Source of the DNA: a phage
Sequence record: PX104378.1
Length of the DNA stretch: 64,000 nt
Strand: one strand, 5' to 3'
Shown here: in pieces, positions 5,172 through 31,431 of the stretch
Position numbering within the stretch: position 1 is the first letter of the stretch
Layout: every line of letters starts with the position of its first letter
The notes under the pieces: model-generated
What the model saw: only the letters and a program-made list of their open reading frames with translations
What the model was told of the DNA's origin: nothing
The model's database searches: none
Made by a program: the position numbers and the translations under genes

Positions 5172-7940
5172 ATGGCAGATTTAAGCAGAATCCAATTTAA
5201 ACGCACTAGCACTAAAGGTCGTCGACCTGATGCTGGTACGATGAATCCGGGTGAGTTGGCGATCAACTTAGCCGACCAATATTTGCTTACTAAAAACGAC
5301 TCAGGTGCTATTATCAATTTAAGTTGTCCTCCGGTGTATGACCGCGATGTTACAATGGCTGGTAAAGTTAAAGGTAATAATTATATCTTAAGTAAAACCG
5401 CTAACTATCTGGAAGATCAGACAGCGCGAGATCTTAACTACTTTGGTGCTTTCCGTACCAATGGTCTTGATGGTTTTCTAGAACTAACGCTAAACGTTCC
5501 TCATTCTTCTGGTGTTCAGCATGGTCGAGGATTTACTTTCCAGTATGGTCACACTGGATCGCGAGTAGAAACCTATGGCTATAATAGAGAAGGTCAAAAA
5601 GCATTCAGCTATAAAATGTATCACGAAGGTGATAAACCAACTCCAGGAGAATTGAACGTTTATAGCAAACAAGAAGTAGATAGAATGTTTGTTAAGAACG
5701 TTAAACTTGCTACAGTTCCTGGTGATACAGTTGAAGGCTATTTTAAATTAGCAACTGCAATGATTCCACAAAATGGTCGTAGTGTATTTTTCCGTATTCA
5801 TGGTGGTAACGGATATAACGTTACTGCATACGATCAAGTTGATATTGTAGAAATTGTTATTCGCAGTGGAAATAATCGCCCTAAAGGTGTTAACGTTATT
5901 GCATATCGCCGAAATACAAACAAATCATTTGATGTTTTGGCTGTTAATACTTCTGGTGATAACTATGATATCTATGTGAAATATCAGCGTTACACTGATA
6001 ACGTTATTGTTGAATTTGGTAAAAGTGTTGATGTTAATCTGGTAGTTCATGACGTTCCAGATTTTGTTGCTGAACGTCCTGCTGGTGATAATGTTATTGG
6101 CGGTCGCGCGGTAACTCTTTTCAACACCGAAAATAAACGTGGTGTGTTGAGTTTTGACGATAACACACAAAATAGCTATGATATTGTTCACTTGAGTAAT
6201 GATAAAGGTACTGGACGAAAATATATTCGTAAATTCCGTAGCAACTATAATGAAATGATCTGGCATGAGACTGTTCAAGGTTCCAGTTATCGTCTGGCTA
6301 CTGGTAGCACTGATGCTCAGGAAATTATGACTATTGAATCTAGTAGCTCAATTGCTGGAACTCATAAAGGTAATATTATTTCTGGTCGTATGCTGTTAAA
6401 TGGCGGATCTAATGCCATTACACTACGCCGACCTGCTGGTCAATCTAATCATATTGCGTTTCAAGATAATCGTACTGGAGATATTACCCGTCAAGGATGG
6501 ATCGGTTATGCAAACGCCGATACTGACGTTTTTGAATGGTATAGTGATGTAGGTGGCAGTTCTATTCGTCAACATATCGACGGACAGATCGAATTTCAGA
6601 CAGGTAACATGAAGCGAGTTTATACCAACGGTCAATTCATTTCTTTATATGCTGATGGCTTCCGTACTGTATATGGTAACTATGGATCATGGTGGCGAAA
6701 TGACGGTAGTAACGTTTATCTGATGAGCACAAAATCAGGCGACGCTATGGGTCCGTGGAATACCTTTAGGCCGTTCATATACAGTCTCGCCAATGGAAAC
6801 GTTACTCTAGGTGGTAGCGATGCTGGCAATCATTTAATGCGTCTCAATAATGAAAATCGTCAAGTAGAAATAAATGCAACAACACATTTAGGGTCTCGAT
6901 TATATTGGGAACGTAGCGAAGGATCGGCATCTAGATTTTTTATTAAGAATTGGGGTAATGGAACTTCTCGCGCTCAAGTGTGGGAACTTGCTGACGAGAC
7001 AGGTTATCATGTATATTCTCAGCGAAACGACGCGGGTGTTCTTCAATTCCGTACTGCTGGTAATTTTGAGACTGGTGGTGATGCTCAAGTAAACGGGACT
7101 TTACGTGTCACCAATGTTCTTCGAACAGATAACCAAATTCAGATTTATCGCGATAACAACAAAGAACTCTGGTTTAAGGATGCTAATGGTACTAACCGTG
7201 GTGTTATCTGGGGTGATAGCACAGGTCAAATGCGCATTCGAAACTATAACAGCGGAGAATTTGACCATGTTTTCCAGACTGGTATGATTCGCTTAGAACG
7301 TGGGTATGCAAACGGTAGCGACCGTGGTTTGATTCGCGGAGAAGTACAAGGTGGTGCTTGGTCAGAATGGAAAACTCGCGCTGCTGGCTTATTGGTTGAC
7401 TGTCCAGCTGCTCAAACTTCCGCATATAACGTATGGAAAGCGACCAAATGGGGTTTAGACCACATCGCGGCAATGGGCGTTCATGTTCCTAGTGGTGTTA
7501 TTACTAATGCTATGGCACGTCTTCATATTCATACCACAAACTTTGACTTTAACGCATCTGGTGATTTCCAAGCTGGTCGCAATGGTAACTTTAACGATGT
7601 TTACATTCGCTCTGATGCTCGCCTGAAAATCAATAAGGAAGAGTATAAGGAGAATGCCACCGATAAAGTTAATCGCTTGACGGTATACACCTATGACAAG
7701 GTTAAATCTTTAACCGACCGTACTGTCATTGCTCATGAAGTCGGTATTATTGCTCAGGATCTTGAAAAAGAATTGCCGGAAGCAGTAACAACTTCTAAGG
7801 TCGGCGATCCTGATAAGCCAGAAGAGATCTTAACAATTTCTAACTCTGCTGTCAACGCTCTTTTAATTAAGGCGTTTCAGGAAATGAGCGAAGAATTGAA
7901 AGTCGTTAAAGCTGAACTAGCGGAACTTAAAAAGAATTAA
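5172..7940 (+). CDS. 37: Distal long tail fibre gp37 with C-terminal intramolecular chaperone (S74-type) domain
   Basis: N-terminus MADLSRIQFKR..GELAINL matches T4 gp37; C-terminal ~110 aa carry the SDxxxK autoproteolysis motif (YIRSDARLKINKEEY) typical of endosialidase/T5 pb1 chaperone domains. Confidence 0.8.
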   Translation: MADLSRIQFKRTSTKGRRPDAGTMNPGELAINLADQYLLTKNDSGAIINLSCPPVYDRDVTMAGKVKGNNYILSKTANYLEDQTARDLNYFGAFRTNGLDGFLELTLNVPHSSGVQHGRGFTFQYGHTGSRVETYGYNREGQKAFSYKMYHEGDKPTPGELNVYSKQEVDRMFVKNVKLATVPGDTVEGYFKLATAMIPQNGRSVFFRIHGGNGYNVTAYDQVDIVEIVIRSGNNRPKGVNVIAYRRNTNKSFDVLAVNTSGDNYDIYVKYQRYTDNVIVEFGKSVDVNLVVHDVPDFVAERPAGDNVIGGRAVTLFNTENKRGVLSFDDNTQNSYDIVHLSNDKGTGRKYIRKFRSNYNEMIWHETVQGSSYRLATGSTDAQEIMTIESSSSIAGTHKGNIISGRMLLNGGSNAITLRRPAGQSNHIAFQDNRTGDITRQGWIGYANADTDVFEWYSDVGGSSIRQHIDGQIEFQTGNMKRVYTNGQFISLYADGFRTVYGNYGSWWRNDGSNVYLMSTKSGDAMGPWNTFRPFIYSLANGNVTLGGSDAGNHLMRLNNENRQVEINATTHLGSRLYWERSEGSASRFFIKNWGNGTSRAQVWELADETGYHVYSQRNDAGVLQFRTAGNFETGGDAQVNGTLRVTNVLRTDNQIQIYRDNNKELWFKDANGTNRGVIWGDSTGQMRIRNYNSGEFDHVFQTGMIRLERGYANGSDRGLIRGEVQGGAWSEWKTRAAGLLVDCPAAQTSAYNVWKATKWGLDHIAAMGVHVPSGVITNAMARLHIHTTNFDFNASGDFQAGRNGNFNDVYIRSDARLKINKEEYKENATDKVNRLTVYTYDKVKSLTDRTVIAHEVGIIAQDLEKELPEAVTTSKVGDPDKPEEILTISNSAVNALLIKAFQEMSEELKVVKAELAELKKN

Positions 7941-8918: not shown

Positions 8919-8949
8919 GGGGAAGCCTTTCGGCCTCCCCTTCTTTTTT
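8919..8949 (+). terminator. Terminator at the convergence of t and the minus-strand block
   Basis: GGGGAAGCC-tttc-GGCCTCCCC followed by TTCTTTTTT. Confidence 0.65.
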
Positions 8950-9196
8950 ATTGGCGCATAGAAGCCCCTGAATCACATTTTGACGCTGTATGATGAAAAC
9001 ATGTAGCGTACCAGTCATCGGCTTGCTTGTCTTCGTCAGAGAACGCGTAATTTCGTTGTATACCGTTTTCTACTTTGACCAGTGCAATAGCTGTTTCTGG
9101 AAGATCAATCAATCGGACAAAATCACCATCTTCCCATTCTACACGAGCAATATCATAACCCATCTCAAAATAAACAATCGCTTGCTCTAATCTCAT
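8948..9196 (-). CDS. Hypothetical protein
   Basis: 82-aa ORF, first of the minus-strand block convergent with t; ATG start. Confidence 0.45.
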   Translation of the reverse strand: MRLEQAIVYFEMGYDIARVEWEDGDFVRLIDLPETAIALVKVENGIQRNYAFSDEDKQADDWYATCFHHTASKCDSGASMRQ

Positions 9197-9504
9197 TCTG
9201 GAAACTTCCCGTAAATGTTCTCTGCCAACATACGCGCATCGCTAATGATATCTTTCATGCTATGACCGTAGTGTTCAGCCATTGAGTTGACACAATCAAC
9301 AAAGAAATTATAACGGCGACGGTTTAAGATTTCTTCTCTGCTATAGTTTTCATATTTGACGGTCGAGTGTGCTTTCTCGATTGCCTTTATCGCTATATTG
9401 ACTTCATTGATAATGGTTTTAGCATTGTATGCACCACGACGGATCAGGATATTTGTCAATTCTCTTGCAATATCTTGCAATTCTTCATATTCATGTTCAA
9501 ACAT
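9193..9504 (-). CDS. Hypothetical protein
   Basis: ORF-track 9193..9525 trimmed to the ATG preceded by GAGAGG RBS (MFEHEYEEL...). Confidence 0.45.
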   Translation of the reverse strand: MFEHEYEELQDIARELTNILIRRGAYNAKTIINEVNIAIKAIEKAHSTVKYENYSREEILNRRRYNFFVDCVNSMAEHYGHSMKDIISDARMLAENIYGKFPE

Positions 9505-9529
9505 AATCAACCTCTCAAAATACAATCCC

Positions 9530-10464: not shown

Positions 10465-10764
10465 TTATTTTCGGTTGTGGTCACGATATGTTTTAAAATA
10501 TCCCTCGTACCACGGTAAAACATCTGGATTTTTACCACTATACAGACCTTTAACCATCATGTCAATAAGACCGTCCGGTGTTTGATAATTACCAGCTTTT
10601 ATAAGCTCTCTGATTAAAATTTCCTTGTATATGTCTTTCGGATCTTCGTAATCAACTTGTATTGTGGTTGTTGTCCCGCTTAATTTGGTTTCTGGAGTAT
10701 CTTGCATCGCCTTCCACCAATCTTTTGTAATCTTCATGCTGTTGAATTTCATAATTATCTGCAC
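10465..10764 (-). CDS. Hypothetical protein
   Basis: 99-aa ORF; start uncertain. Confidence 0.4.
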   Translation of the reverse strand: MQIIMKFNSMKITKDWWKAMQDTPETKLSGTTTTIQVDYEDPKDIYKEILIRELIKAGNYQTPDGLIDMMVKGLYSGKNPDVLPWYEGYFKTYRDHNRK

Positions 10765-11522
10765 CCGTACTGGTCAACATAGGTTTTAGAGTGTCCTTGT
10801 TCGCGGACTTCTAAGCGAATGATATCGCTATCCTGTTCACGCCACACATAATACTTTTTATTTTCTTTCCAGCCGCTAAAAACGATCATTCCGTTGTCAT
10901 CAACTACTCGTTTTGTGTTTGCCTTATGAACATCATTATTGTCGATGTATGTAAAATGGATAATCTGACCATCTTTTACTTTCAGAGTCAATTCACCTGG
11001 ATTGTATTCTTTATAAAAAGGCTGTTCTTTCGGCTTAGTGTTTGCTCCGTCGATATTTTTCCATTTAAAGTGAGATTCACATTGCAAGGTAAACTCGCTG
11101 GTTTGTGGTTTCTTTTCTTTCTTCGGTTGCTCTACCACTTTTTCTTCCTGTTTCGGTTGTTCTTCTTCAACCTTCGCAGAAGTCTCTGAATCGCTTTCTG
11201 ACGCTGTTTCTTCTTTAGGTAATACATTCATCAAGTTTTGGATTTGAGCGTTATATACAGCCTCCAGTGGCTGAATCTGCCCGATATTGATCATTGTATC
11301 ACGAACGGTTTTATTCCAGTTGCGTTGCTCTTGTTTCAGAGACGGATCAATCTTAACAGCCTTAACATATACTTCATGGAGTTTAGAATCCAGTGCGGAG
11401 ATTGACTCATTAGCACAAATAAACTTCTCTGATTTGGTAGTGGCTTTAGCGCAATCGAAGGACGCAGCATTAGCACCGAATGCAGTAGCAGAAAGAACGA
11501 TAGCAGCGATAATGTTTTTCAT
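10755..11522 (-). CDS. Secreted protein with DUF1311 (LprI-like lysozyme-inhibitor) N-terminal domain
   Basis: Signal peptide MKNIIAAIVLSATAFGANA; motif C..A..T..E..IC...LD..L..Y...QRNW...RD typical of DUF1311; K/E-rich linker; GAGGAATATATT-ATG; promoter cassette upstream. Confidence 0.6.
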   Translation of the reverse strand: MKNIIAAIVLSATAFGANAASFDCAKATTKSEKFICANESISALDSKLHEVYVKAVKIDPSLKQEQRNWNKTVRDTMINIGQIQPLEAVYNAQIQNLMNVLPKEETASESDSETSAKVEEEQPKQEEKVVEQPKKEKKPQTSEFTLQCESHFKWKNIDGANTKPKEQPFYKEYNPGELTLKVKDGQIIHFTYIDNNDVHKANTKRVVDDNGMIVFSGWKENKKYYVWREQDSDIIRLEVREQGHSKTYVDQYGCR

Positions 11523-11556
11523 AATATATTCCTCAGTGTTTTGTCTTGATGTGAGT

Positions 11557-11585
11557 ATCTTACTACTCCCTTAATCCGGTGTCAA
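11557..11585 (-). promoter_or_regulatory. Early promoter cassette with spacer stem-loop (PeSL-like)
   Basis: Minus-strand TTGACA-17nt-TAAGAT; GGGAGTA..TACTCCC inverted repeat; upstream of ORF 10755..11522. Confidence 0.5.
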
Positions 11586-27376: not shown

Positions 27377-28405
27377 TTAAAATTTACAATATTTCATAAA
27401 CCGCATTTTAGCCATCAGACCTTGTACGGTGTTCTCTTTGATATATTCCATGATCTGGTCGCGTGTAGCGCCCTCGTCCTGAATCATGGCGTTAACGTCT
27501 TTAGAATGCCACGGACAACGATCCCACAAAACAATCTTTTCCCCTGCATTGATAAACTTTTCCAGTCGGTGCATTGTATCGGCTGACCGTGGTTCCGCAT
27601 CAAGTACAAACACTCGCTGGTCTGGGAAAGGGATTTCATCTAATCCCAAAGTACCGCCAGTAATTGCACACCCGTTATCAATAAACAATGAATCGATCGG
27701 ACCTTCTAAGAAATACACTGGCTTGCTCGGATCGGCGCGTTCAAGACCATAGACCTTACTCGCTAACTCGTGAGTTTTAATCGTCATATATTTGGTCTTT
27801 CCGTAATCCTTTCTCAATGCTCGCCCCTGAATGGATTCTATCTTGTTCTCACGGTTAAAGATAGGAATCACTAAACGCGGTTCAGGTTGCGGATTCTTAA
27901 AAGTATCAGCCTTAATGTGATTTGCTACCTTTTGCCATTCTCTCGTGAAATACAGAAGATCCCATTTATCGTGGGGAATGCAACGATCACTGACATACTT
28001 TATTATAGGATGATTAGCCGGAAGAGTATCTAATCTCTCGCAGAAAGGCAATGTTTGCACTTTCTTAATCTCCGGCTTTTCTACCTTTTTCAGTGGCTTG
28101 ACCGTGGTGTTCTTGTGGTCGCCTTGTTCCTTCCGTCTCTCCATAAGCCATTCCCTGAATAGGTCCGGCTTATACTGTTTGAGAAATTCACCTAACGGCT
28201 GATTGTAGTTACAGTTGAAACATCCGGCTCGCAAACTATCTTTATAGGTATAGATACGGAATCGCGCTTGAGTATGATTTTTCTTTGAGTCACCGCAGAT
28301 CGGACAACTACAGACCAGCGTAAATGAGCTAGTATGCAACCGTTTAAAATTTCGTTCGCCGTATATGGCTTTTTCCGCTATTTCATAATCTGCGTAGTAA
28401 ATCAT
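27377..28405 (-). CDS. 61: DNA primase gp61
   Basis: 342 aa (same as T4 gp61); zinc motif CPICGDSKKN...CFNCNY; TOPRIM block EGPIDSLF; C-terminal QGLMAKMRFMKY. Confidence 0.9.
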   Translation of the reverse strand: MIYYADYEIAEKAIYGERNFKRLHTSSFTLVCSCPICGDSKKNHTQARFRIYTYKDSLRAGCFNCNYNQPLGEFLKQYKPDLFREWLMERRKEQGDHKNTTVKPLKKVEKPEIKKVQTLPFCERLDTLPANHPIIKYVSDRCIPHDKWDLLYFTREWQKVANHIKADTFKNPQPEPRLVIPIFNRENKIESIQGRALRKDYGKTKYMTIKTHELASKVYGLERADPSKPVYFLEGPIDSLFIDNGCAITGGTLGLDEIPFPDQRVFVLDAEPRSADTMHRLEKFINAGEKIVLWDRCPWHSKDVNAMIQDEGATRDQIMEYIKENTVQGLMAKMRFMKYCKF

Positions 28406-28414
28406 ATTAACCTC

Positions 28415-28618
28415 TTATAGCTCAAATTTCATGAAAGTTCCCACACTTTCATTTTCATTCTCTCCGTTTTCATCTAAGCCAAATTTATAGACACTACCAT
28501 CTGGCGATGTGTAAGAGAATACACGAAAACGGCCTACCGGATCAAGTTCTGTAAATTCATATTCTTTTCCGGCTTCAAAAAGTGCATATGTGCTTTTAAG
28601 ACATTTCATCGTAATCAT
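28415..28618 (-). CDS. Hypothetical protein
   Basis: 67-aa ORF. Confidence 0.45.
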   Translation of the reverse strand: MITMKCLKSTYALFEAGKEYEFTELDPVGRFRVFSYTSPDGSVYKFGLDENGENENESVGTFMKFEL

Positions 28619-28806
28619 TTAAGCGCCACCGACAACAGAATGAGAACTACACCAACATACATTGTGATCTCGGATAACTTTTCTGTTTTTGTTTTGTGTC
28701 CAGATAATCCGAAAACAACAACACCGATAATAGCGGACAGCAAGCCAACGATAAACATGATGATACTAAGCACCGTCTTTCTCCTTCTTGCGTTTTTCTT
28801 TACCAA
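28615..28806 (-). CDS. Hypothetical small membrane protein
   Basis: 63 aa with two hydrophobic helices. Confidence 0.45.
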   Translation of the reverse strand: MVKKNARRRKTVLSIIMFIVGLLSAIIGVVVFGLSGHKTKTEKLSEITMYVGVVLILLSVALK

Positions 28807-28938
28807 CTATACTAGGTCCACGATTGGTAATAGATCCGCTCGTTTCCCCTGCTGCGATCTTCTCAGGATTGCCGCCAGCATCGCCAGCGGTCATATCTTC
28901 TTTGAGTTTATTTTCTTCAACAAACTGTTTAAAGCCAA

Positions 28939-29313
28939 TCATAGAATAATCTCTTTTAGTAAGTCAACAATCTGGTCTTTCGTCAGTTTATCCTGATTCT
29001 CTACAATCTTGATAACACAAGCGTTAACATCTTTGCGAGTCACGCGGGAGATCGTTTTAATACGATGAAACGGTTCGTAGAAATATACTGCTTCATTATA
29101 GAGCGCAGCAATTTTTCGACGCATTTGATCTTTATCAGCCAGAAAAACAATTGCAGTTTTCGGATCTACACCAGCCACATCATAAAGTTCGGCGACTCCC
29201 CAGCGTCCTTCCGGTTCAACCATACCAGCATGTTTACCGTTAATAAAGATAAGAATGTCTCCGTTATTTGCGGTTTTAAATGCTACATCTTCCGGTGTAA
29301 TCATATTTTTCAT
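28939..29313 (-). CDS. Hypothetical protein
   Basis: 124-aa ORF; RBS AAGGAGACTATATT-ATG. Confidence 0.5.
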   Translation of the reverse strand: MKNMITPEDVAFKTANNGDILIFINGKHAGMVEPEGRWGVAELYDVAGVDPKTAIVFLADKDQMRRKIAALYNEAVYFYEPFHRIKTISRVTRKDVNACVIKIVENQDKLTKDQIVDLLKEIIL

Positions 29314-29332
29314 AATATAGTCTCCTTATAGG

Positions 29333-29968
29333 TCAAGCGAACGTAGAAAGCAAATGTTTTGTTTCTTTCAGTTGTCGTTCAAGATCTTTGCGTTTCTCTT
29401 TAAGTTGCATTTTAGCATTGTTTCGCTGTTTTTCAACATCTTTATCGATGTGCTTAGTCCAATTATCAATATCAGAATAAGTTGGCATACCCAATTCTAA
29501 ACCTAATGCGGTTGGATACAGGGTAACAGTCCATAAACCGCTAATCTTCTTAAATAGGTCATGGTGTAGTGTACTACCTACATCTTCCGGTGTCAACTCT
29601 TTTTCTTCTTTCAGTGGTGGGATCTCGTCATATGGTTCCAGTGCATTTACTTTAATATCAGATACCTCATCAAAGAATCCGCGTACATCCGCAGGAAATA
29701 CACAAGCAATTTCCCAACCGTGATCACGCAGAGAAGTAATATTTTTCACTCCCCCACCATGTGTGATGATTGATGTGACATTGCCATCAAGGTCCACCGA
29801 ATTTACGAGAAATGGCTTATCGTCTGTCAGATCATTATAAAACTGTGCTTCGGCTGTAGTCATCTCCAGAAACAGATCTCGGATCGGACGACCATCAGGT
29901 GCGTTACCTTCCTTGAGAGTATAAAAGCGACTTACGATCCATTTTGGCGGTAAAGCATTAGCGATCAT
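29333..29968 (-). CDS. Hypothetical protein
   Basis: 211-aa ORF between 41 and 61; C-terminal K/E-rich coiled coil. Confidence 0.5.
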   Translation of the reverse strand: MIANALPPKWIVSRFYTLKEGNAPDGRPIRDLFLEMTTAEAQFYNDLTDDKPFLVNSVDLDGNVTSIITHGGGVKNITSLRDHGWEIACVFPADVRGFFDEVSDIKVNALEPYDEIPPLKEEKELTPEDVGSTLHHDLFKKISGLWTVTLYPTALGLELGMPTYSDIDNWTKHIDKDVEKQRNNAKMQLKEKRKDLERQLKETKHLLSTFA

Positions 29969-30018
29969 GTTATATCTCCTATCAAATCATTCACCAGCGC
30001 CCCGTAGGGCGCATTTTA

Positions 30019-31431
30019 TTAGAAAGTCATGTTATTTGCTAGCTCGTCGAGTTTTTCGCGTTTCTCGGCTTGCTGTGCGCTTTGTGGTTTAACTTGTGCA
30101 TTCTCCTGATCGGCGATCTGGTTTGGAACTTCATACCAACGCTGATTTCCTTTTTTCACACCAACATTAAACCGTGAATAGTAGTTCTTATCACCGTAAC
30201 GAGATTTAATCTGCTTGAGTAGTTGAACACCCATTTTTGCAAGGTCTTCGGTTTCAATTACACCCAACATAAAATCGGCTGTAGCCGGAAGACCTGCTGA
30301 TTCAGCGGTATCACTCATGTTAAGGTCGGAAGCATCCCAACCAGCACGGGTAGTCTGTGCCGCAGTCCAACCAACAACATCCCACTTAACAAAAAATCCT
30401 CGCAGTTCTTCCGCAATCGCCTTAACTAGTGTGTAACTATTTTCAGAGTATACACGCAAGCGAGACGATGCGCAAATCCCCAGATAGTCAACAATCACAA
30501 CATCAGGTTTAAACTGTTTCTTGAGTCGCAATTCATTCATTAACGCCTCAAAGTGATTGGAGTTCGCGCCACCAGTCGGATACTGCTTGATCATCAATTT
30601 TCCAACCGGACGATCTCCGATCTTCTTATTCTTAACACGCTTCATACGTGCGGAATATTCCGCAAAAGAAACATTACCATTATCCAATTCATCTAATGTA
30701 AGGTCAAGCAAGTTTGCGTCAATACGTTTGGCTACGACATGCTCTGCCATCTCCATTGAGATATACAATACATCATAACCACATTCCATATAATCCGCAG
30801 CAAGAGAACACAATCCAAGCGATTTACCAACGTTTACACCAGCAAGCAACACATTTAGCGTTTTTCTTTCCGCCCCTCCTTTCGTGATTTTGTTCAACAT
30901 CGGCAGTTTAAACGGGATCTTATTCGCTTTAGTCTGATATAGCAAGAATCGTTTTTCGAAGTCATTAAACCAGTCATGACCTACATCAGAATCAAACGTA
31001 ATGGATAGTGCTTCCTGCATGATCTCAGGAATAGCTCCCTCGCCAGGCAATTTCTTATTCTGTTTCTCTTTTGGTAGTTGTGCGTTCGCTTGAATCTCTA
31101 GCGCCCGTGACATTGCATTATACATGGCACGGTCACGAATAAATTTTTCGGTTTCCTTCATTAACCAATCAAGGTCTTCCGGTGTATTCTCAAGCGAATC
31201 AAGAAGAGTTTTAGCCCCTTCATATGTTGTCTGATTGCCTCTCTCCTTGTCTAAAGCAATCTGTAATGCAGTTGGCGTAGGAATATTGGAATATTCGTCT
31301 ACGTGCTTTTTAATCAGCTTATAAATCAGTTTTTCTTCGTCTTCGGTGAAGTAGTCCGCTTTAAGGTGAGGCCATACATTCGTAAAGAATGCGCCATTGT
31401 AAATCAACTGTGAAAAGATAGTTTTAATCAT
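30019..31431 (-). CDS. 41: Replicative DNA helicase gp41 (DnaB-like)
   Basis: 470 aa (T4 475 aa); Walker A LLAGVNVGKSLGL; RecA-like helicase core. Confidence 0.9.
   Translation of the reverse strand: MIKTIFSQLIYNGAFFTNVWPHLKADYFTEDEEKLIYKLIKKHVDEYSNIPTPTALQIALDKERGNQTTYEGAKTLLDSLENTPEDLDWLMKETEKFIRDRAMYNAMSRALEIQANAQLPKEKQNKKLPGEGAIPEIMQEALSITFDSDVGHDWFNDFEKRFLLYQTKANKIPFKLPMLNKITKGGAERKTLNVLLAGVNVGKSLGLCSLAADYMECGYDVLYISMEMAEHVVAKRIDANLLDLTLDELDNGNVSFAEYSARMKRVKNKKIGDRPVGKLMIKQYPTGGANSNHFEALMNELRLKKQFKPDVVIVDYLGICASSRLRVYSENSYTLVKAIAEELRGFFVKWDVVGWTAAQTTRAGWDASDLNMSDTAESAGLPATADFMLGVIETEDLAKMGVQLLKQIKSRYGDKNYYSRFNVGVKKGNQRWYEVPNQIADQENAQVKPQSAQQAEKREKLDELANNMTF

Follow-up and report, generated by a model that had tools for sequence, protein, structure and literature searches.

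What a T4-type phage gains from a predicted secreted protein with a constant first half and an exchangeable second half was the question raised by one locus in the 64,000-nucleotide stretch of phage DNA analysed here (sequence record PX104378.1; the window). The source of the window was a Krischvirus, an RB49/JSE-like T4-type coliphage, and the DNA near the gene was 95–97% identical to ELT4, FL38, W115, RB49, and about 60 other records. The gene, located at 10755..11522 on the minus strand, had an ATG start and encoded 255 residues followed by a stop codon. This was the open reading frame (ORF) in which the preliminary description had seen a secreted, LprI-like DUF1311 protein. The product was predicted to be composed of a signal peptide, a constant helical N-terminal domain, a disordered linker, and a variable all-beta C-terminal domain, the last of which was encoded by a sharply bounded, replaceable cassette. 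Our preferred reading, to which we assign a probability of roughly 40%, is that the protein may be a periplasmic binder or inhibitor acting against incoming muralytic or envelope-crossing proteins of rival phages, in the service of superinfection exclusion or immunity.

The gene is the ortholog of RB49p262 and EpJSE_00265 (JSE_00265) and belongs to PHROG 14799 (listed as function unknown), which matched the whole length of the protein with an E value of 3.6e-122. Homologs were present in 61 RB49-like records, counted by organism name, against about 60–63 Krischvirus records in the database. The full-length match and these homologs therefore indicate a real gene that is close to universal in Krischvirus. 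Neither the gene nor its DUF1311 label is new to the databases: the copies in E. coli are named 'lysozyme inhibitor LprI family protein' by PGAP, the RB49 ortholog is named likewise in UniProt, and a DUF1311 hint for one RB49 ORF was tabulated in 2006 with an E value of 0.2 (PMC1524935). The LprI-like arrangement of two modules with an orphan barrel, the sharply bounded cassettes, and the sharing of the gene between virulent and temperate phages are not described in the literature searched.

The two halves of the gene were compared across 15 loci, that of the window and those of 14 further Krischvirus genomes, and among 21 aligned homologs from the database. In this alignment residues 1–106 were almost invariant, while the C-domain retained only three invariant residues, Cys148, Gly159, and Cys254. 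Among the 15 loci the mature N-domains were 96–100% identical. The part of the gene encoding the N-terminal half differed from that of RB49 by 13 synonymous and no nonsynonymous codon changes, and this part is therefore under strong purifying selection. The C-domains fell into discrete types, with identities of 97–100% within a type and 2–40% between types. Type A was found in the window and in UPWr_E1, type B in RB49 and seven others, and type C in PHB13, GEC-3S, and Phi1. Types A, B, and C were mutually 33–40% identical, and none of them exceeded 21% identity to the JSE type. At the corresponding locus of a Krischvirus-like metagenomic contig of 174.8 kb, a fifth type, D, was present. When database and prophage copies were counted, at least eight C-domain types were distinguished at a 60% identity threshold. 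Judged by identity bands among the sequenced Krischvirus, type B was the commonest by far (about 44 records), followed by type C (about 12), and types A and E1 were rare.

The exchange of the C-domain was confined to a cassette at gene nucleotides 403–766 (10757..11120, minus strand), as delimited by DNA breakpoints against the RB49, KFS-EC, JSE, and PHB13 alleles. Homology of the DNA to these alleles stopped at gene nucleotides 402–415, which correspond to the end of the linker, and restarted at the stop codon, at nucleotide 767 for RB49, KFS-EC, and PHB13 and at nucleotide 771 for JSE. The flanking genes were 96–100% identical at the protein level. A diversity-generating retroelement was excluded as the source of this variation because no second copy of the cassette was present in the 64-kb window; the alleles were also discrete and not graded by variation at A sites. 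Discrete alleles with sharp breakpoints are what would be expected of a gene part that determines specificity in a conflict system.

The domain structure outlined in the preliminary description was borne out by sequence analysis and by an AlphaFold2 model built with the 21 homologs. The signal peptide (residues 1–19, MKNIIAAIVLSATAFGANA↓A; 11466..11522, minus strand) was assigned by rule from its n/h/c organisation and AXA site. It was composed of a basic n-region (MK), a 13-residue hydrophobic core with a peak Kyte-Doolittle value of 2.47, and a c-region, GANA↓A, that fits the −3/−1 AXA rule. The site is of the signal peptidase I type, with no lipobox ahead of Cys24, and residues 1–21 had a predicted local distance difference test score (pLDDT) below 50. 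The constant N-domain (residues 20–103; 11214..11465, minus strand) was modelled as four helices (residues 30–37, 39–58, 62–80, and 84–98). It was matched at residues 24–76 by the Pfam family PF07007 (LprI) with 26.0 bits against a gathering score of 22 (E value of 1.2e-5), although the match was partial and covered profile positions 1–71 of 106. Cys24 and Cys36 were its only cysteines, whereas a distant relative, P0021, has four in the same region and DUF1311 family members have been reported with further conserved cysteines (PMC7933661). From the profile alignment, the N-domain is best classed as a shortened DUF1311 variant, short of the full-length domain.

The K/E/P-rich linker (residues 104–140; 11103..11213, minus strand) differed in length among alleles. 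Twelve D/E and seven K/R residues were counted among the 39 residues at 104–142, and residues 104–136 were disordered in the model, with a pLDDT below 50. The variable C-domain (residues 141–255; 10758..11102, minus strand), represented in the window by an allele of type A, was modelled as nine beta strands over residues ~141–254 with a pLDDT of about 90, in agreement with the second domain of about 110 residues that had been proposed. Cys148 was located in the first predicted strand (residues 141–157) and Cys254 in the last (residues 246–254), so placed that a predicted Cys148–Cys254 disulfide apparently staples the first strand of the barrel to the last. The Sec signal peptide with its AXA site and the pair of cysteines in each domain fit the oxidising periplasm.

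The predicted fold of the C-domain was not accompanied by recognisable family membership. A profile of 14 C-domains matched no Pfam family, and MliC (PF09864) was not matched by any of them at an E value of 10 or below. A profile search of PDB sequences gave no match to the C-domain, including none to MliC, PliC, ACP, or PhiA. An exhaustive hmmsearch of 1.84 billion (1.84e9) representative proteins found nothing beyond its own family except three repeat-protein artefacts, which made up three of the six matches below an E value of 1e-3. The fold search against BFVD returned the RB49 ortholog and small phage proteins, mostly uncharacterised, two of which were annotated as lipoproteins. MliC, PliC, and ACP are eight-stranded barrels with a conserved β1–β8 disulfide, and PhiA has the same disulfide-stabilised fold (PMC5507604, PMC8334348). 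The C-domain is predicted to resemble these proteins in its small-barrel fold and in the placing of a cysteine pair in the first and last strands, and is unlike them in the absence of the MliC motifs. The predicted resemblance to these periplasmic inhibitors of peptidoglycan hydrolases is therefore one of fold and not of family. The JSE-type C-domain was likewise predicted to be all-beta, with eight strands and a pLDDT of 60–84. No homology was detected between the two deepest C-domain groups by profile–profile alignment (hhalign probability of 2.8%, with only the first 22 residues aligned), and these groups may share a fold without proven homology.

The gene was located in a leftward early block, between topoisomerase gene 52 on one side and holin t and the gp37 tail-fibre genes on the other. 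Its expected place on an early transcript was supported by its common orientation with early genes 52 and rIIB and by a candidate sigma-70-like early promoter, TTGACA-17 nt-TAAGAT, at 11585..11557 (minus strand; 10 of 12 consensus matches), at the equivalent of which a promoter is annotated in the GEC-3S record. The promoter scan overall found six sites against 7.2 expected from shuffled sequences, which represents no enrichment. A Shine-Dalgarno sequence, GAGGA, was read at 11530..11534 (minus strand), 7 nt upstream of the ATG. The GC content was 35–41% across all copies of the gene.

The same gene was found in temperate phages. Nine proviral contigs of about 23–36 kb from E. coli isolates in IMG/VR carried an N-domain 95–98% identical to that of Krischvirus, and 51 of the 5426 complete E. 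coli genomes contained a homolog, in all cases on the chromosome. The carriers include clinical and animal isolates. The prophage copies matched Krischvirus DNA only over the first ~385 bp of the gene, at 96–97% and from 5 nt before the ATG; a short patch of 77–79% identity just 3' of the stop codon, corresponding to the first ~77 nt of p261, was also common to both. The prophage alleles A', D, and E2 were related to the Krischvirus alleles A, D, and E1, yet distinct from them (52–60% identity or more). In strain 14EC017 the homolog was the last gene of a siphovirus-type prophage of about 38 kb (chromosome 2556570..2594956) that splits the antitoxin gene hicB. It adjoined a tail tube gene and was followed by a strong terminator-like hairpin, and a serine recombinase was encoded at the opposite end. 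This prophage was AT-rich (41–43% GC) and carried insertion sequences IS1 and IS4 inside its tail genes. The gene is presumably expressed in the lysogens.

A sister family, PHROG 4675, matched the 255-residue protein only with its N-terminal half (1e-25). Members were found in Klebsiella phage F48 (gp108) and Aeromonas phage AS-sw (gp009), both T4-type, in the lambdoid phage ev099 (gp35), where the gene lies between ea22 and xis/int, and in the plasmid-phage SSU5 (SSU5_101). Their positions were L027 2501..3253, L028 2474..3193, L029 2501..3199, and L030 2501..3199. Like the protein studied here, they have a signal peptide, a DUF1311 N-domain with the pattern ASFDC..KA..E..IC, a charged linker, and a two-cysteine C-domain, and they occur in virulent T4-type and temperate phages alike. 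The C-domain belongs to a different family, and the N-domains are 37–49% identical to that of the Krischvirus protein.

These features can be assembled into a possible mechanism. The product would be an accessory, soluble periplasmic protein, made early by a virulent phage and built of two modules on a flexible linker. The constant helical DUF1311 module would serve the same purpose throughout, whether by docking to a conserved component of the host envelope or by self-association. Since the N-domain works in two unrelated phage backgrounds, it should find its partner either in the host envelope or in another copy of itself. Specificity would be determined by the variable barrel, which would bind and neutralise some protein arriving in the periplasm from outside. 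The most likely target would be a peptidoglycan hydrolase, or another periplasm-transiting part, of the injection machinery of a competing phage, so that superinfection or lysis from without would be blocked in the manner of T4 Spackle. We infer that the protein binds or inhibits, what its target is, and that exclusion follows. To be expressed early by a virulent phage and carried as the terminal cargo of a prophage is typical of exclusion and immunity genes, such as T4 Sp and Imm, P1 Sim, T5 Llp, and phi80 Cor, and exclusion genes are common at the terminal cargo position of prophages. The discrete, ancient, and recombining alleles, the early expression, and the terminal prophage cargo therefore favour a periplasmic binder or inhibitor. 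The DUF1311 match, the predicted placing of the C-domain cysteines, the LprI-like architecture, the near-universal carriage in Krischvirus, and the lack of a Spackle homolog in the window also count in favour of this reading.

A functional parallel, from which the proposed role is drawn by analogy, is T4 Spackle (gp61.3), which is reported to block superinfection through inhibition of the gp5 tail lysozyme (PMC7677548). Spackle is an early, secreted, and soluble periplasmic protein of a T4-type phage, as is predicted for the protein of the window. The two differ in that no sequence similarity connects them, that Spackle is a single domain of 97 residues without DUF1311, and that the protein of the window has no Spackle family match in the Pfam scan. 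The Spackle locus lies between genes 41 and 61, whereas the position of the present gene is between 52 and t. A search of the window by tblastn with the T4 and F48 Spackle sequences gave one weak match inside helicase gene 41, which was rejected as spurious, and no Spackle homolog was found within the window, including the syntenic 41–61 interval. The interval from primase gene 61 to helicase gene 41 (28405..30019, minus strand), the place of T4 sp/61.3, contained ORFs of 67, 63, 58, 124, and 211 residues, none of them Spackle-like, and the 63-residue ORF (28615..28806) had two predicted transmembrane segments. No paper naming both RB49 and Spackle was found in the literature.

Several observations weigh against an inhibitor of this kind. 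ScwA, a soluble periplasmic DUF1311 protein of Salmonella, gave no protection from lysozyme (PMC7933661), and purified PhiA did not inhibit in vitro (PMC8334348). The C-domain has no sequence similarity to MliC or PliC, and in a regular-expression scan the motifs SxSGAxY, YxxxTKG, and SGxxY were present in none of the 35 family proteins; in MliC and PliC, SxSGAxY (SGxxY) and YxxxTKG enter the active site of lysozyme (PMC5507604, PMC8334348). The N-domain was modelled with moderate confidence (pLDDT of 50–70). Klebsiella phage F48 encodes both Spackle, in a nearby gene, and a two-domain DUF1311 protein, and the latter is thus not a simple substitute for Spackle. Tracking of the phage's own tail lysozyme was rejected: Krischvirus gp5 was at least 99% identical in 58 records and 95–99% identical in two more, with 99.3% in JSE. 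Since gp5 is invariant while the C-domain varies, the alleles cannot track the gp5 of their own genus, and any gp5 target would have to come from other phage genera. The nearest relatives of gp5 (RB49 gp5; L037 1651..3453) outside the genus, in Klebsiella and Enterobacter phages, were less than 60% identical, so that the genus is sharply set off, the collection containing no intermediates. The lysozyme-inhibitor-like character claimed in the preliminary description survived in part. The predicted MliC/PliC/ACP-type fold and the DUF1311 immunity proteins speak for it, whereas the link from DUF1311 itself to lysozyme is weak: the inhibition of lysozyme by M. tuberculosis LprI, a DUF1311–MliC protein, is attributed to its C-terminal MliC domain and not to DUF1311 (PMC7933661), in line with the result for ScwA. 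With these points in the balance, superinfection exclusion remains plausible as the leading idea for the 255-residue protein.

More tentatively, the virulent and temperate coliphages may have in common a cassette-switching system of periplasmic exclusion or immunity. A constant DUF1311 docking module would carry interchangeable orphan barrels, each directed against the envelope-penetration protein of a different rival phage or against a different cell-wall toxin of bacteria, and specificities would be reshuffled between phage lineages by recombination at the linker and the stop codon. If the barrel alleles do set specificity against rival phages or toxins, the locus would offer a simple, modular, and naturally polymorphic model of how the periplasm is policed by lytic and temperate phages. 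It would be relevant to the design of E. coli phage cocktails, Krischvirus phages being in therapeutic use, and the role of the widespread DUF1311 domain would become clearer, as a constant part that carries variable periplasmic binding domains. The same carrier plan is seen in phage F48, Aeromonas phages, lambdoid phages, SSU5, and M. tuberculosis LprI. If the protein is merely a lysozyme-inhibitor-like passenger, the result is a routine refinement of annotation.

Among the alternatives, orphan immunity against bacterial toxins that target peptidoglycan, namely type VI secretion system (T6SS) effectors or bacteriocins, survives best, though we consider it rather unlikely. The protein would protect the host cell from its neighbours, with the barrel matched to the toxins. 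DUF1311 proteins have been predicted as immunity proteins for lysozyme-like T6SS effectors (PMC9796082, PMC12135965), to which genes for LprI-type proteins with signal peptides lie adjacent, and Etsi4, a DUF1311 protein of enterohaemorrhagic E. coli, confers cognate immunity to the cell-wall effector Etse4 (PMC12981562). Etsi4 and the products of orphan immunity genes in Pantoea resemble the phage protein in having a signal peptide and DUF1311, and they act in the periplasm against cell-wall toxins. Prophage cargo and discrete polymorphic alleles are both typical of immunity genes. The T6SS immunity genes, however, adjoin their effectors in T6SS clusters, whereas the phage gene has a variable barrel and a phage context. 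No effector gene was found beside it in any context; in Krischvirus its neighbours were small phage ORFs, and in E. coli they were the end of the prophage and hicB. In the described cases DUF1311 is the immunity domain, which here is the invariant part, and it is doubtful what a virulent phage would gain during its short cycle of infection. PADLOC, whose library does not cover T6SS immunity, gave no matching model.

A role as modulator of host or phage cell-wall hydrolases is improbable; the protein would act on envelope integrity or lysis timing in the manner of ScwA, or as an accessory factor of lysis inhibition. ScwA, the precedent for this role, raises MltD, a lytic transglycosylase whose level it controls, and lyses cells when overproduced (PMC7933661). 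The holin gene t lies about 1.8 kb from the gene, and the invariant N-domain suggests a conserved, host-derived partner. A housekeeping target in the host would nevertheless leave at least eight very different C-domain alleles unexplained. Holin T was 97–100% identical whatever the C-domain allele, without association between the two in the 15 genomes (Mantel p = 0.20). The gene also occurs in an unrelated, siphovirus-type prophage with different lysis genes, and no T-type holin was found in the prophage region examined. Lysis inhibition, one of the functions suggested in the preliminary description, is accordingly not favoured. Over the same genomes, the C-domain type was not associated with p252, p256/257, p264, or p267. 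The adjacent gene p261 alone showed an association, which was weak (r = 0.33, p = 0.016) and is ascribed to physical linkage. This next gene downstream, at 10465..10764 (minus strand), is a homolog of RB49p261 in PHROG 15915, with no signal peptide and two allele classes about 48% identical.

Inhibition of animal lysozyme of the c-type or g-type, as by LprI or MliC, is a less probable role again; the gene would be a lysogenic-conversion factor for survival in the gut and a passenger in the virulent phage. The architecture corresponds to that of M. tuberculosis LprI (Rv1541c), which is exported and has an N-terminal DUF1311 domain (PF07007) followed by a small beta barrel, eight-stranded in LprI and predicted in the phage protein. 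The predicted fold and the cysteine pair in the first and last strands recall MliC, PliC, and ACP, of which ACP inhibits lysozyme without the MliC motifs (PMC5507604), and the prophage copies are carried by clinical and animal isolates of E. coli. LprI differs, however, in being lipid-anchored and in having a barrel recognisable as MliC (PF09864), whereas the phage protein has no lipobox, a long K/E linker, and an allelically replaceable barrel that lacks both a Pfam MliC match and the motifs. Animal lysozymes are few and conserved and leave the allelic diversity unexplained, and the gene is retained under a candidate early promoter by essentially every Krischvirus genome, which speaks against a mere passenger. 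E. coli, moreover, already has Ivy, MliC, and PliG.

Masking of the phage's own outer-membrane receptor, in which the barrel would bind its periplasmic face and inactivate it against later phages as T5 Llp or phi80/N15 Cor do, is the least probable: virulent and temperate coliphages alike are known to have exclusion proteins that face the periplasm and act on receptors (PMC9586334), tail-fibre genes lie nearby, and small secreted or lipoprotein barrels of other phages are weak structural neighbours in BFVD, but the protein has no lipobox, and its C-domain type was independent of the last 250 residues of gp37 in the 15 genomes (Mantel r = −0.03, p = 0.50), with C-domains 34% identical in the window phage and GEC-3S, whose gp37 tips are 100% identical, and gp37 tips 43–100% identical among eight phages with the same C-domain.

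The gp37 distal tail fibre gene itself (5172..7937, plus strand) was strongly mosaic across Krischvirus, with 22–100% identity over the last 250 residues, and the tip encoded in the window was 74% identical to that of RB49. Some relatives in the genus have an extra gp38-like adhesin gene instead. Beside holin t, an 82-residue ORF (8948..9196, minus strand) matched the Pfam family PF11195, 'Thoeris anti-defense 2-like' (Tad2-like), with 27.1 bits against a gathering score of 25 (E value of 6.4e-6), and is by this match a candidate for an anti-defence function within the early block. A 110-residue ORF (9193..9525, minus strand) replaced RB49 p256, p256.1, and p257, with 32–53% identity. This alternative form was also present in L003, L012, Skers, and Makalu002, and as a discrete allelic replacement it is the second in the block; its occurrence did not depend on the p262 allele (Mantel p > 0.6).

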